A DNA stretch of 5,204 nucleotides from the IMG/VR virus record IMGVR_UViG_2541047428_000017. One strand, written 5' to 3'. The translations under genes were made by a program, and so were the position numbers. Origin of the DNA: a virus. Lineage: Duplodnaviria > Heunggongvirae > Uroviricota > Caudoviricetes. Below the pieces are notes generated by a model. The model saw only the letters and a program-made list of their open reading frames with translations, was not told where the DNA came from and ran no database searches. Below, in pieces: positions 41 through 5,204 of this stretch; position 1 is the stretch's first letter; every line of letters starts with the position of its first letter.

Positions 41-238
41 ATGCTGAAACAGCAGGATATGACAGAAACCGCCAGAGTGGTGTTTAATGAATTAAGCGTT
101 ACCGACCCGGCGACAGTCGGGGAGATTGCGCAGAATACTTACCTTTCACGCGAACGCTGCCAGTTAATACTGACCCAGCTGGTTATGGCGGGTCTGGCAG
201 ACTATCAGTTTGGTTGTTACAGACGCCTTCAGTCCTGA
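41..238 (+). CDS. hypothetical small protein (65 aa); family not recognised
   Basis: ATG at 41 with AAGGGA about 8-13 nt upstream; frame runs to TGA 236-238. The same frame is stop-free back to position 2, so a longer protein entering from the left edge cannot be excluded. A frame-1 stop at 19-21 fits an upstream gene ending just before this start. Confidence 0.4.
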   Translation: MLKQQDMTETARVVFNELSVTDPATVGEIAQNTYLSRERCQLILTQLVMAGLADYQFGCYRRLQS

Positions 239-265
239 AGGCTTTTTTATTTGTGGTAAATGGGC

Positions 266-388: not shown

Positions 389-1446
389 ATGCTTAATACT
401 GTAAAAATATCCAGTTGTGAGTTAATCAACGCCGACTGCCTGGAATTTATGCGGTCGTTACCCGAAAATTCTGTTGACCTGATAGTCACGGACCCGCCGT
501 ACTTCAAAGTGAAACCCGAGGGCTGGGATAACCAGTGGGCGGGTGATGAAGATTACCTGAAGTGGCTGGACCAGTGTCTTGCGCAGTTCTGGCGGGTGCT
601 GAAACCTGCCGGAAGTCTTTACCTGTTCTGTGGCCATCGTCTGGCATCTGACACCGAAATCATGATGCGTGAGCGGTTTAACGTGCTGAACCATATCATC
701 TGGGCAAAGCCGTCCGGACGCTGGAACGGGTGCAACAAGGAAAGCCTGCGGGCGTATTTCCCCGCCACAGAGCGCATTCTGTTCGCAGAGCATTATCAGG
801 GGCCGTATCGTCCGAAAGATGCCGGGTATGAGGCGAAGGGTAGGACACTGAAACAGCATGTGATGGCCCCGCTGATTGCTTACTTTCGTGATGCGCGCGC
901 TGTCCTGGGGATAACGGCAAAACAGATTGCAGATGCCACAGGAAAGAAAAACATGGTGTCGCACTGGTTCAGTGCCGGTCAGTGGCAGCTGCCGAACGAA
1001 AGCGATTATCTGAAATTACAGGCACTGTTTGCCCGGGTGGCAGAAGAGAAGCATCAGCGGGGTGAACTGGAAAGCCCCACCACCAGCTGGTGGATACGTA
1101 TGCCTCTCTGAACCGACAGTATGCGGAGCTGCAGAGTGAATATAAGCATCTGCGGCGGTATTTCGGTGTGACGGTGCAGGTGCCGTACACCGATGTGTGG
1201 ACGTATAAACCGGTGCAGTACTATCCAGGGAAACATCCGTGCGAAAAACCGGCAGAAATGTTGCAGCAGATAATCAGCGCAAGCAGTCGTCCGGGAGACC
1301 TGGTTGCAGATTTCTTCATGGGGTCGGGGTCGACAGTGAAAGCAGCGATGGCGCTGGGACGTCGTGCAACTGGCGTTGAACTGGAGACTGAACGTTTTGA
1401 GCAGACGGTGCGGGAAGTACAGGATTTAATCATTCGTAACGGATGA
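389..1446 (+). pseudogene. beta-class N6-adenine/N4-cytosine DNA methyltransferase, interrupted by a frameshift
   Basis: Frame-2 ORF 389-1111 carries motif IV DPPY (DLIVTDPPYF, nt 491-502). Frame-1 ORF (open from 1066, listed 1090-1446) carries the AdoMet motif I FxGxG (DFFMGSGST, nt 1312-1335). Order IV then I is the beta-class arrangement. Both parts are needed for activity; combined length is about 352 codons. The frames overlap at 1066-1111, next to a C4 run at 1075-1078. No SD ahead of 389, and no independent RBS for the second part. Confidence 0.75.
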
Positions 1447-1486: not shown

Positions 1487-1562
1487 GGCCCTTTAGCTCA
1501 GCGGTGAGAGCGAGCGACTCATAATCGCCAGGTCGCTGGTTCAAATCCAGCAAGGGCCACCA
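1487..1562 (+). tRNA. ileZ: tRNA with anticodon CAU, tRNA-Ile2 (lysidine) type or tRNA-Met; resembles the phage ileZ class
   Basis: Hand-folded cloverleaf: 7-bp acceptor stem GGCCCTT/AAGGGCC, U8-A9, D stem GCTC/GAGC with GG in the loop, anticodon loop CTCATAA, 5-nt variable loop, T stem GCTGG/CCAGC with TTCAAAT loop, discriminator A, encoded CCA. From memory it resembles E. coli ileX. Ile2 versus Met cannot be settled by eye. Confidence 0.85.
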
Positions 1563-1642: not shown

Positions 1643-1719
1643 GCGTTGTTAGCTCAGCCGGACAGAGCAATTGCCTTCTAAGCAATCGGTCACTGGTTCG
1701 AATCCAGTACAACGCACCA
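1643..1719 (+). tRNA. tRNA-Arg (anticodon UCU, decodes AGA)
   Basis: Hand-folded cloverleaf: acceptor GCGTTGT/ACAACGC, D stem GCTC/GAGC, anticodon stem ATTGC/GCAAT with loop CTTCTAA, T stem ACTGG/CCAGT with TTCGAAT loop, discriminator A, encoded CCA. Confidence 0.88.
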
Positions 1720-2005
1720 CACCACACTTATCTGCCCTGACTCTCTTTTGCGGGCTTTTTATTACAGGAAAGACACCGGACAGTGAAATGTTAAATGCCT
1801 CACAATTCAGGCAGTTGACTGTTGCCTGACATGCTGAGCGTTTGTTAAAAAAATCCTGCATGATGAATCCCCCTGAGCGGCGGGGCATAATGACAGATGT
1901 TTGGTTGCGTATTGTATAGGCAAGTTGCGGATTCTGTCTGGTCATTGCAGAATTCACCGGGAGGCACCCGGCATCATGCTGTATACAGAGATTAGGCATA
2001 TATCC

Positions 2006-2031
2006 AGGCTTCTCATCGCAGGAGCCTTTTT
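2006..2031 (+). terminator. candidate intrinsic terminator (+ strand)
   Basis: 7-bp stem AGGCTTC/GGAGCCT (2006-2012 with 2021-2027, one G-U pair), 8-nt loop, then T5 (2027-2031). Confidence 0.35.
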
Positions 2032-2037
2032 ACATGC

Positions 2038-2242: not shown

Positions 2243-4180
2243 ATGACATTTAAACATTATGATGTTGTCAGGGCGGCGTCGCCGTCAGACCTTGCGGAAA
2301 AGCTGACACACAAACTGAAAGAGGGCTGGCAGCCGTTTGGTAGTCCTGTGGCCATAACCCCTTATACCCTGATGCAGGCGATTGCCGCGGAGGGGGATGT
2401 GACCACGCCAGTGGTTGTGCCCGGCACGGGGGATGGTGGCTATCCGGGAGTGGTCACCACGGAGCCAGATTATTACTACGTTATTCCACTGGCCGGGCAG
2501 TCGAACGGCATGGCTTACGGTGAGGGGCTTCCTCTGCCGCAGACATATGACCGTCCTGACCCGCGTATAAAGCAACTGGCTCGTCGCAGCACAGTGACGC
2601 CGGATGGCGCTCCCTGTAAATATAACGACATTATTCCGGCAGACCACTGTCTGCATGATGTACAGGACATGAGCCGTCTTAACCATCCGAAAGCTGACCT
2701 GTCGAAAGGTCAGTACGGAACCGTGGGGCAGGGGCTGCATATTGCCAAAAAGCTGCTGCCGTTTATACCGGCGAATGCGGGTATTCTTCTGGTTCCGTGC
2801 TGCCGTGGTGGTTCAGCTTTCACCACCGGGGCAGATGGAACATACAGTGACGTGACCGGTGCCTCAGAGAGTTCTACCCGCTGGGGTGTGGGCAGGCCGC
2901 TGTATAAGGATCTCATCGGTCGTACAAAAGCCGCGCTGGCAAAGAACCCGAAAAATGTGCTGCTTGCCGTGGTGTGGATGCAGGGGGAATTTGACTTTGA
3001 CGGAACGCCAGCAAATCACACAGCCCGTTTTACAGAAGTAGTGGAACAATATCGTACGGACCTTGCAGATATGGTGGGACAGTGCGCTGGTGGTTCTGCT
3101 GACGGTGTTCCCTGGATATGTGGAGACACAACTTATTTCTGGAAGCAGAAGAGCGAATCCACTTACCAGACGGTGTACGGCAGTTACAAAAACAAAACGG
3201 AAAAGAATATTCACTTTGTGCCGTTCATGACCGATGAGAACGGAGCAAATGTCCCGACGAACAAACCGGAAGAAGACCCGGATATTCCGGCATCAGGATA
3301 TTACGGTGCGGCCTCCCGGACGTCGGCAAACTGGACGTCAGCAGACCGTGCGAGCCATTTCAGCTCATGGGCACGCAGGGGGATTATTTCTGACCGTCTT
3401 GCCTCAGCGATTCTTCTCCATGCAGGACGGACGGCTGAACTGGTGGGTGGGGAACAGGTTGTGATGCCGCCGGATGAGAAGCCGTCACCGGACACACCAT
3501 CAACACCGTCAACGGACGGGAAATCAGTGACAACGCTGCTTTATTACCGTGCAACAGAGTCAGGTGGTTTACTGAATCCGCAGGGATGGGGAGCTGAAGG
3601 AGGGCGTGCATTGGTAGTTGATGATGCAGGTGCTGCAGGAGGTAAGGCGCTGAGGTGGACCAAACAGACAGGAAGTTCCTCGTGGTTTATGCAGCATGAT
3701 GCCGGTAATGGCGCAGACCTGCTGGAGAAGGGCGGGCTTATCAGTTGTCGTTTTAAAGTTGATGGCACACTGACAGCTAATCAGTACGCACTGGCGCTGT
3801 ACTGGCCGGTTTCTTCACTGCCTCAGGGTGTCACACTGGAAGGTAATGCCGGTCATAACCTGCTGGCGTCGTTTTACGTACAGAGCGATGCCACAGACCT
3901 TAATGTGATGTACCACAAGGGAAATGCTGGTCAGAACACGAAGCTGGGGTCATTCGGCGCATTTGATAACGAATGGCATACGCTGGGCTTCCGTTTTGCC
4001 GGTAACAACAGTATTGAGGTGACGCCGGTCATTGATGGTAAGGACGGGACGCCGTTCATGCTGTCACAGTCACCGGTCGGCACGTTTACGGCAGACAAAT
4101 TGCGCGTGACCGATATCACTAGCGGTGCGACATATCCGGTGCTGATTGAAAGTATAACAGTGGAAGTGAATAACCCGTAA
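2243..4180 (+). CDS. nanS-p: prophage NanS-p-type sialate O-acetylesterase (645 aa): N-terminal DUF1737-like region, SGNH/SASA esterase domain, Pro/Ser/Thr linker, C-terminal beta-rich domain
   Basis: ATG at 2243 with GGGAGG SD 4-9 nt upstream (the listed TTG at 2186 is less likely). GQSN catalytic-serine motif of the sialate O-acetylesterase family at nt 2495-2506 (Ser87). PST-rich linker PPDEKPSPDTPSTPSTDG at about nt 3466-3520. Length and position (after phage tRNAs, before the lysis genes) match the gene found downstream of stx in Stx phages. Confidence 0.88.
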   Translation: MTFKHYDVVRAASPSDLAEKLTHKLKEGWQPFGSPVAITPYTLMQAIAAEGDVTTPVVVPGTGDGGYPGVVTTEPDYYYVIPLAGQSNGMAYGEGLPLPQTYDRPDPRIKQLARRSTVTPDGAPCKYNDIIPADHCLHDVQDMSRLNHPKADLSKGQYGTVGQGLHIAKKLLPFIPANAGILLVPCCRGGSAFTTGADGTYSDVTGASESSTRWGVGRPLYKDLIGRTKAALAKNPKNVLLAVVWMQGEFDFDGTPANHTARFTEVVEQYRTDLADMVGQCAGGSADGVPWICGDTTYFWKQKSESTYQTVYGSYKNKTEKNIHFVPFMTDENGANVPTNKPEEDPDIPASGYYGAASRTSANWTSADRASHFSSWARRGIISDRLASAILLHAGRTAELVGGEQVVMPPDEKPSPDTPSTPSTDGKSVTTLLYYRATESGGLLNPQGWGAEGGRALVVDDAGAAGGKALRWTKQTGSSSWFMQHDAGNGADLLEKGGLISCRFKVDGTLTANQYALALYWPVSSLPQGVTLEGNAGHNLLASFYVQSDATDLNVMYHKGNAGQNTKLGSFGAFDNEWHTLGFRFAGNNSIEVTPVIDGKDGTPFMLSQSPVGTFTADKLRVTDITSGATYPVLIESITVEVNNP

Positions 4181-4193
4181 GCAGGAAAAAAAG

Positions 4194-4233
4194 GCCGCCG
4201 GGGCAGGGAAAACAAGGAGCCAGAACCGGCGGC
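4194..4233 (-). terminator. weak terminator-like hairpin, readable on the - strand
   Basis: 8-bp GC stem GCCGCCGG/CCGGCGGC (4194-4201 with 4226-4233) with a long 24-nt loop; the A7 run at 4186-4192 is a U-tract after the hairpin on the - strand. The long loop makes it doubtful. Confidence 0.2.
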
Positions 4234-4327
4234 AAATGTCGTTATATCCAAAGCAAAACATGCAGGACACTTTTTTAACCAACAGGTATTAACGATGTCA
4301 ACACCATATCAATAACCGGGAGGGATA

Positions 4328-4510
4328 ATGAGATTTGTACAGCTTATTTTATTGTATTTCTGCACGGTGGTGTGCACGTTATATCTGGTAAGTGGCGGGT
4401 ATAAGGTTATCCGGAACTATATACGCAAAAAGATTGATGCCGCGGCGGCGGAAAAAATCAGCGCCAGCCAGTCAGCCGGAACAAAACCCGAAGAGCCTCT
4501 CATTTCGTAG
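4328..4510 (+). CDS. hypothetical small protein (60 aa) with a hydrophobic N-terminal segment, possible single-pass membrane protein
   Basis: ATG at 4328 with GGGAGGG SD (4318-4324); N-terminal stretch LILLYFCTVVCTLYLV followed by a charged, Ala-rich tail; sits between the esterase and the holin. Confidence 0.45.
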   Translation: MRFVQLILLYFCTVVCTLYLVSGGYKVIRNYIRKKIDAAAAEKISASQSAGTKPEEPLIS

Positions 4511-4547
4511 CAACTTTCTTAACAACACCTTTCAACGAGAAAATCCC

Positions 4548-4817
4548 ATGTCAGAAATAAAATCTCTGGTCACTGCTGAAGCAGTGAAGGACGTCCTGCG
4601 CTCTGAAGAAGTCAGAAGCGCACTGAAACAGCAACTCCGCCAGAATCTTGAGGCGCGTCTTGATGCTGAAGTGGATGCCATTCTGGATGAGCTGCTGGGG
4701 GGACCGGCTGCTCCTGAGCCTGAAGACGGCGCGGGTGACAGTGCTGTTTCAGATGGCGTTGTGTCTCAGCCTGACGGTAGCAGTGAGCCTCAGCCTGGCG
4801 GCGAAATGATGATGTAA
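4548..4817 (+). CDS. hypothetical acidic small protein (89 aa)
   Basis: ATG at 4548 with only a weak GAGA SD. The frame is also open from GTG 4392 and ATG 4437, but those starts lack an SD and overlap the previous ORF. Acidic, Pro/Gly-rich C-terminus ending EMMM. Confidence 0.4.
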   Translation: MSEIKSLVTAEAVKDVLRSEEVRSALKQQLRQNLEARLDAEVDAILDELLGGPAAPEPEDGAGDSAVSDGVVSQPDGSSEPQPGGEMMM

Positions 4818-4892
4818 CCATACGCAGGGGCTGTCGGTGTGAGCTGATGCCCCTCCTGTTGTTGTGAGCTTCCGGATTGCGGGAGACGGGGT

Positions 4893-5108
4893 ATGTACCA
4901 GATGGAAAAAATCACAACGGGTGTGTCATACACCACGTCAGCGGTGGGGACGGGATACTGGTTACTGCAGCTGCTGGACAAAGTCTCTCCGTCCCAGTGG
5001 GTGGCGATAGGTGTGCTGGGGAGTCTGCTGTTTGGCCTGCTGACGTATCTGACTAACCTGTATTTCAAAATCAGAGAGGACCGTCGTAAGGCGGCGCGGG
5101 GAGAGTAA
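4893..5108 (+). CDS. S: S21-type class II holin (pinholin), 71 aa
   Basis: GGGAGA SD 7-12 nt upstream of ATG 4893. Two predicted transmembrane segments ([16 protein letters not shown] and [23 protein letters not shown]) and charged tail [13 protein letters not shown], close to phage 21 S as I remember it. Met1 and Met4 (MYQM) form a possible dual start. Confidence 0.85.
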
Positions 5109-5112
5109 AGCG

Positions 5113-5204
5113 ATGAAGAAAAAATACGAACTGGTTGTTAAAGGGATAAATAATTACCCGGATAAGATTACTGTTACTGTGGCACTGGAAATTGGTGGGT
5201 ATCC
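5113..5204 (+). CDS. 5' end of a downstream gene (first 30 codons; truncated by window end), product unknown
   Basis: ATG at 5113 with GGAGAG SD at -13 to -8, starting 4 nt after the holin stop. N-terminus MKKKYELVVKGINNYPDKITVTVALEIGGY is hydrophilic, not a Gly/Ala-rich SAR segment. Confidence 0.5.
   Translation, partial: MKKKYELVVKGINNYPDKITVTVALEIGGY

Follow-up and report, generated by a model that had tools for sequence, protein, structure and literature searches.

The window, that is, the whole stretch of 5204 nucleotides analysed here, carries at positions 389–1446 of the plus strand one beta-class N6/N4 DNA methyltransferase gene, which is broken into two open reading frames (ORFs) of 240 and 118 aa. 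The gene is very probably a pseudogene of an orphan adenine methyltransferase of the M.EcoGII type, which lost a single A and has been inherited in one sub-lineage of clade 8 of E. coli O157:H7. The elements of the broken gene are as follows:

389–1111 (+): ORF1, the N-terminal fragment of the methyltransferase by translation, 240 aa from the ATG at 389
491–502 (+): catalytic motif IV, DPPY (GACCCGCCGTAC), by translation in the frame of the ATG at 389
1071–1073 (+): AAA, the mutation site according to the alignments, AAAA in every intact allele aligned
1072–1446 (+): the C-terminal 124 native codons, K229–G352, and the stop codon, in the −1 frame relative to ORF1
1312–1335 (+): motif I, FFMGSGST (FxGxG, S-adenosylmethionine binding), by translation in the frame of the GTG at 1090

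ORF1 contains motif IV and consists of 228 native residues followed by 12 out-of-frame residues (SPTTSWWIRMPL) and a TGA; motif I lies in ORF2, which is called as 118 aa at 1090–1446 (+) with the GTG at 1090 as its start. A TGA at 1109–1111 ends the first frame, and the second is open from position 1066, after the TGA at 1063–1065, giving an overlap of 46 nt (1066–1111). The original prediction had placed the two motifs at these coordinates in different frames and had given the same limits for the overlap, and the translation reproduces both exactly.

The profile of the N6_N4_Mtase family (PF01555) is divided between the two ORFs. Its positions 1–106 match ORF1 (E = 3.6e-17, 63.5 bits) and positions 121–220 match ORF2 (E = 1e-24, 88.1 bits), whereas the intact 352-aa allele matches positions 1–219 as one stretch (149.1 bits). 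All three scores are far above the gathering cut-off of 26.7, which indicates that the split gene is real and not a chance pairing of frames. The order of motifs is that of the beta class, with DPPY N-terminal of FxGxG and the target-recognition domain between them; the two motifs do not stand on one uninterrupted polypeptide, because ORF1 ends at 1111, before motif I.

We borrowed the domain boundaries for the window gene from the model of M.EcoGII (PMC11551740), in which the Rossmann domain is formed by residues 1–134 and 260–349, and a four-helix target-recognition domain with a helix-turn-helix occupies residues 160–237 and is accompanied by a charged linker. By these boundaries, the native part of ORF1 comprises the N-terminal half of the Rossmann fold with motif IV, residues of the dimer interface and the helix-turn-helix target-recognition domain, and the charged helices of the linker, together with the C-terminal Rossmann half and its motif I, are encoded in the segment 1072–1446. 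The break at codon 229 thus cuts the protein between the recognition domain and the linker.

The original prediction explained the split by the loss of one base between the two motifs and proposed an alignment with intact homologues to locate the junction. We aligned the window with the intact copy of strain PV15-279 and with the copy of an Stx2a phage, and the alignment contained a single gap, which falls in an A run: the window has AAA at 1071–1073 and the intact alleles have AAAA (GGAAAAGCCCC). The deletion strikes codon 229 (AAG, Lys): the sequence is CTGGAAAAGCCCC in intact genes and CTGGAAAGCCCC in the window. The loss had originally been assigned to the C run at 1075–1078, four bases downstream of the actual site, with one C to be added. 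The run was located correctly, but it is C4 in all the copies aligned, the window included, and loss of a C is therefore ruled out.

With the A restored, the gene becomes a 352-aa ORF (...QRGELEKPHHQLVDTY...) of the length predicted, which is identical to WP_000935548.1 of O157:H7 strain PV15-279; the repaired junction reads ...GELEKPHHQL... and not ...GELESPHHQL.... The intact gene is 1059 bp long and the frameshifted allele 1058 bp. Over 1058 bp, the window and six frameshifted loci show a single difference from the intact allele, AAA in place of AAAA, and AAA is found in all 17 of the frameshifted loci fetched. Since no other substitution separates the frameshifted from the intact allele, the deletion must be recent.

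The distribution of the allele was examined by a megablast search of positions 389–1446 against 5426 complete E. coli genomes, which gave 346 records with at least 99% identity. The exact 1058-bp frameshifted allele is present in 26 of the 5426 genomes, and from the 27th listed match on, the alignments cover 1059 subject bases. Where a country is recorded for the 26 carriers, it is the USA, New Zealand, Japan, the UK or Korea. The annotation pipeline PGAP flags the gene as frameshifted, over the span corresponding to 389–1446, in all eight RefSeq loci inspected (H6437 twice, 2017C-4109, 28RC1, ERL03-1416, ATCC 43889, CEC01302 and PA2). With draft assemblies included, the exact 240-aa product occurs on 98 contigs, and the exact intact 352-aa protein on at least 999. 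Among the IMG/VR junctions, 1 is frameshifted, on a contig with another variant of the locus than the window's, and 25 are intact; a 36-mer spanning the frameshift junction had no match in metagenome contigs or in GTDB representative genomes.

To relate the allele to lineage, we used the 35 closed clade 8 genomes with SNP genotypes (SG) listed in Table 2 of PMC9997748. The list of frameshifted genomes holds 15 of the 16 genomes of SG8_31B, SG8_32 and SG8_33 (5/5, 8/9 and 2/2, respectively). None of the 19 genomes of SG8_30 (12) and SG8_31A (7) carries the exact allele; 18 of these were scored by the exact-match list alone, and the remaining one, SG8_31A strain 93_161312, was inspected directly and has the same prophage with an intact 1059-bp gene. 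The exception is the closed SG8_32 genome CEC08123, which is absent from the 26 carriers; its methylase copy was not found in two stretches of 40–50 kb taken at guessed coordinates, which held other prophages. SG8_32 emerged from SG8_31B (PMC9997748), so the carriers form one branch. The SNPs in the 13-kb loci themselves carry no signal of descent, frameshifted and intact strains being almost identical there, because O157:H7 is so clonal.

The ORF is thus broken relative to intact orthologues, and the break is inherited within a clade, as in a lineage-specific pseudogene. The presence of the allele in many genomes and its restriction to a sub-lineage of clade 8 indicate a real, vertically inherited pseudogene. 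Of the origins originally considered, a recent inactivating mutation in a prophage methylase is the one that agrees with both observations, namely a difference by the indel alone and a confinement to one sub-lineage. The deletion would have a single origin in the ancestor of SG8_31B, SG8_32 and SG8_33 and would have been transmitted vertically since.

The host locus is a lambdoid prophage of E. coli O157:H7 without stx genes; it carries paa and, in strain 93_161312, adjoins ompW. In identical or nearly identical loci, the methylase is preceded by paa, hokD, a DUF968 gene, RusA, a DUF1133 Q-like antiterminator and a 65-aa ORF, in that order, and is followed by tRNA(CAT), tRNA-Arg, a sialate-esterase-like gene, holin, lysozyme and terminase. 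The RusA, Q-like, tRNA, holin, lysozyme and terminase neighbours constitute a lambdoid setting. Within the window, the neighbouring elements are as follows:

41–238 (+): conserved hypothetical ORF of 65 aa (WP_000917750.1), between the Q-like gene, which is outside the window, and the methylase
225–250 (+): hairpin resembling an intrinsic terminator, GCCTTCAG-TCCT-CTGAAGGC, with a T run, directly upstream of the methylase gene
1487–1562 (+): tRNA, anticodon CAT, immediately downstream of the methylase (Met by ARAGORN, tRNA-Ile in RefSeq)
1643–1719 (+): tRNA-Arg with anticodon TCT
1829–2037 (+): sRNA STnc100 (Rfam, 175 bits)
2039–2098 (−): anti-sRNA AgvB (Rfam, 56.6 against a gathering cut-off of 56), overlapping a weaker AsxR match
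2243–4180: 645-aa protein with domain matches to DUF1737, sialate O-acetylesterase (SASA) and DUF6645

The 65-aa ORF has no Pfam or NCBIfam match. The T run of the terminator (238–250) is polymorphic: most loci, the window among them, have T6, and PV15-279, F3113 and the majority of loci with the 645-aa esterase have T5. Between the two called tRNAs, at 1563–1642, there is a relic of a third tRNA, which corresponds to the middle tRNA-Arg of Stx2a phages. Against the Stx2a phage copy, 12 bp are missing from its middle, apparently with the anticodon arm, and several bases are substituted; it is called by neither ARAGORN nor Rfam. In the Stx2a phage, STnc100 stands directly after stx2B, and hence the stx slot of the window, from the tRNAs to STnc100, is empty. 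The 645-aa protein resembles the 'yjhS' 9-O-acetyl-N-acetylneuraminic acid deacetylase encoded downstream of stx2 in one Stx2a phage (locus L003). The paa prophage of most strains has a different esterase allele of 617 aa, with about 74% DNA identity over 2449–3388. In a third lambdoid prophage, in CEC08123 (locus L058, 45206–45919), a 237-aa helix-turn-helix protein lies between the 65-aa ORF and tRNA-Ile; we considered it as a relative of the methylase, and it proved to be unrelated, so the slot takes alternative cargo.

The window itself looks like a join of two prophages. Positions 1–2346 match the paa prophage of the carriers at 100%, the first mismatch to H6437 falling at 2347. Positions 2291–5204 are identical to a module of esterase, DUF1378, DUF826 and holin genes in a different prophage of the same strains, which in H6437 (locus L057) is about 216 kb away and has another antiterminator and no methylase. 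Since both prophages share 2250–2346 except for position 2290, the join must lie within 2291–2346, at the 5' end of the esterase gene. The right part differs by one mismatch from a variant found mostly in carriers, which account for 17 of its 23 best matches. The whole 5204-bp haplotype was in no collection searched; the best complete genome is PV15-279, with 99.9% identity and an intact methylase, and F3113 shares with PV15-279 a similar arrangement, likewise with an intact methylase. The join could be a real recombination or a short-read assembly chimera, and the verdict on the methylase is the same for either origin.

These features of the window bear on the possibility, also raised originally, that the frameshift is a sequencing or assembly error and that the source strain has AAAA and an intact gene. 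In favour of an error, the missing base belongs to a homopolymer, the full haplotype was not found elsewhere in the collections searched, the window resembles a join, and frameshifts of the error type do occur in the dataset. The example is strain 86-24 (locus L013, NZ_CP017251.1), which has five unique single-base deletions in its 13-kb locus, at about 9639–11715, and one more in common with FORC_044; its esterase, lysozyme and antirepressor genes are flagged as frameshifted by PGAP. These deletions look like assembly errors, unlike the shared A3 allele, which is found in identical form in 26 closed genomes from several countries and on 98 contigs, produced by different laboratories. For the Japanese genomes, assembly used ONT reads and was followed by polishing, and Illumina data had been generated as well (PMC9997748). 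The allele follows the phylogeny (15/16 versus 0/19), and a run of 3–4 nt is no typical hotspot of errors. Furthermore, with its left 2346 bp fully carrier-like and its right part matching mostly a carrier variant, the source strain most probably belongs to the carrier lineage. An error in the window is therefore very unlikely.

It is still less expected that the gene functions in its split form, either through a −1 ribosomal shift in the region 1066–1111 or through reassembly of the two halves into a split methyltransferase. The overlap of 46 nt would allow a −1 shift to restore the frame, both fragments are native in sequence without further decay, and beta-class enzymes are dimeric and build their Rossmann fold from two separate segments (PMC7544214; PMC11551740). 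However, the original prediction saw no slippery heptamer, and our search agrees: there is no in-frame X XXY YYZ between 1000 and 1111, and the sole XXXYYYZ (CCCGGGT, 1032) precedes the overlap and is not in frame. The only early start of ORF2 is a GTG without a Shine–Dalgarno sequence, and its first ATG, at 1258, comes just before motif I; no Shine–Dalgarno-like motif was found within 20 nt upstream of any in-frame start from 1066 to 1300. The two-frame arrangement is not conserved either, every other allele examined being a single ORF. Together with the occurrence of the exact 352-aa protein on at least 999 contigs, this shows that the family does not use frameshifting. We therefore rejected programmed −1 frameshifting, and the absence of further decay is explained by the recent date of the mutation.

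A different kind of residual activity would be interference. Each carrier genome has 2–5 places matching 389–1446, that is, 1–4 further related methylase genes, which probably sit in Stx2a or Stx2c prophages. The 240-aa fragment keeps residues 97–110 and 116–140, which have been placed at the dimer interface (PMC11551740). Given the dimeric action of beta-class enzymes and these 1–4 further copies, the fragment could conceivably, after induction, bind DNA or pair with intact M.EcoGII-like enzymes encoded by co-resident Stx prophages, giving inactive heterodimers. We regard this as a highly speculative idea; if it were true, a toxic non-specific methylase would be dampened.

The third proposal was a phase-variable switch, in which the A3/A4 tract would change by slipped-strand mispairing, as in phasevarions. 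The two alleles do differ by 1 nt of a homopolymer within the methyltransferase gene, and the population contains both. Known phase-variable tracts comprise about 7 nt or more, or consist of multi-copy repeats. The tract here is 3–4 nt, and the longest homopolymers of the gene, three runs of A5, do not vary. The states are partitioned by lineage (15/16 versus 0/19, with 93_161312 intact) and not scattered. Exact frameshifted junctions number 26, as against about 1120 records at 95–99% identity, the band in which the A4 junction falls. Moreover, a silent late gene of a prophage (PMC5778455) offers no setting in which switching would regulate the host. The shortness of the tract and the lineage-bound states led us to reject phase variation, which we consider extremely improbable. 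Finally, a natural arrangement as two genes, each with a start of its own, has practically no chance of being correct, although gene callers report a pair of proteins and protein databases contain the exact sequence of each: the homologues, at 83–100% DNA identity, are single ORFs, one base in the alignment separates the ORF pair from a single ORF, and one Pfam domain, PF01555, is split across both fragments.

We thus return to the loss of one A in a prophage methylase as by far the best explanation, and its consequences can be outlined as follows. One A was dropped from AAAA at codon 229, and translation from the ATG at 389 therefore stops after 228 native and 12 foreign residues. The predicted truncated product retains DPPY and the helix-turn-helix target-recognition domain, but neither FxGxG nor the second, C-terminal part of the Rossmann domain. 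With motif I and half of the catalytic fold gone, such a product should not be able to methylate DNA, as judged from the fold.

The relationship of the gene to M.EcoGII suggests what was lost. The intact O157 allele is identical to M.EcoGII at 325 of 350 positions (93%), the M.EcoGII sequence having been machine-read from supplement file 5 of PMC11551740 with a few reading errors. The methylase gene of phage 1720a-02, named as a very similar relative of M.EcoGII (PMC5778455), has 93.5% DNA identity to the window gene over its full length. M.EcoGII comes from E. coli O104:H4 C227-11, where a prophage encodes it, and is a non-specific adenine methyltransferase of DNA and RNA that has itself been shown to modify adenines whatever the surrounding sequence. 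[quoted passage not shown] In the lysogen, M.EcoGII and M.EcoGI are both silent, and constitutive expression of M.EcoGII is harmful (PMC5778455).

The intact gene stands where the late region begins, with the Q-like gene on one side and the tRNA/stx slot on the other, and this position suggests that it is expressed on induction only. The intact enzyme would then be made only after induction of the prophage, as part of a Q-dependent late transcript. In the lysogen, the O157 gene is presumably silent, as its position downstream of the Q-like gene and the terminator implies. By analogy with M.EcoGII, to which it is 93% identical, the intact enzyme would methylate adenines of the phage DNA without sequence specificity and so guard it against restriction.

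It should be noted that the general importance of the finding is small, as it adds one more decayed gene to the prophage pool of O157:H7. The deletion of a single A nevertheless marks the SG8_31B/32/33 branch within clade 8 cleanly. It also illustrates that an enzyme of the M.EcoGII type, harmful if constitutive (PMC5778455), can vanish from a resident prophage without any other change, and strains that differ by this base alone are natural controls for the role of the methylase in the phage after induction. A literature search returned nothing relevant on this methylase frameshift. The pseudogene is already flagged in RefSeq; what is new here is the identity of the lost base, the relationship to M.EcoGII and the distribution in clade 8. 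The existing PGAP entries 'DNA-methyltransferase, frameshifted' have the same 1058-bp sequence (for example, E3164_RS15195 in H6437 and ARC77_RS28030 in 28RC1), and the annotation names none of these three.

Compared with known systems, the nearest relative of the window gene is WP_000935548.1 ('DNA-methyltransferase', 352 aa), encoded by this prophage in other O157:H7 strains; it is intact and identical except for the indel. The 'DNA methylase' genes of Stx2a-converting phages are also intact and have 93.6% DNA identity to the window gene. These phages share its gene order (Q, 65-aa ORF, methylase, tRNAs), but have stx2AB after the tRNAs, where the window has no stx genes.

Among solved structures, M.RsrI, CcrM, M.MboIIA, DpnA and the 'Methyltransferase' entries 9c3u and 8urk match both catalytic halves of the intact protein (E = 7.6e-24 to 5e-14). 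The matches of these beta-class structures are confined to the Rossmann segments, about residues 8–142 and 269–343, and no solved structure matched the central domain, in line with PMC11551740. The intact protein scores below every NCBIfam equivalog cut-off.

Phasevarions (mod/hsdS, simple-sequence repeats) likewise involve an on/off change by 1 nt of a homopolymer within a methyltransferase ORF, but the window gene differs from them in its tract of 3–4 nt, in having each state fixed by lineage and in being a late gene of a prophage.

A close relative among characterised enzymes is M.EcoGII. Like its paralogue M.EcoGI and the intact O157 allele, it has the order DPPY, target-recognition domain, FxGxG; it has 349 aa against 352 aa for the intact O157 allele, with about 93% identity, and it is encoded by a lambdoid prophage, as is the window gene. 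The difference is that the window copy is frameshifted at codon 229 and has no motif I in frame. Judged by sequence and setting, the window gene is a member of the M.EcoGII family, but a dead one.
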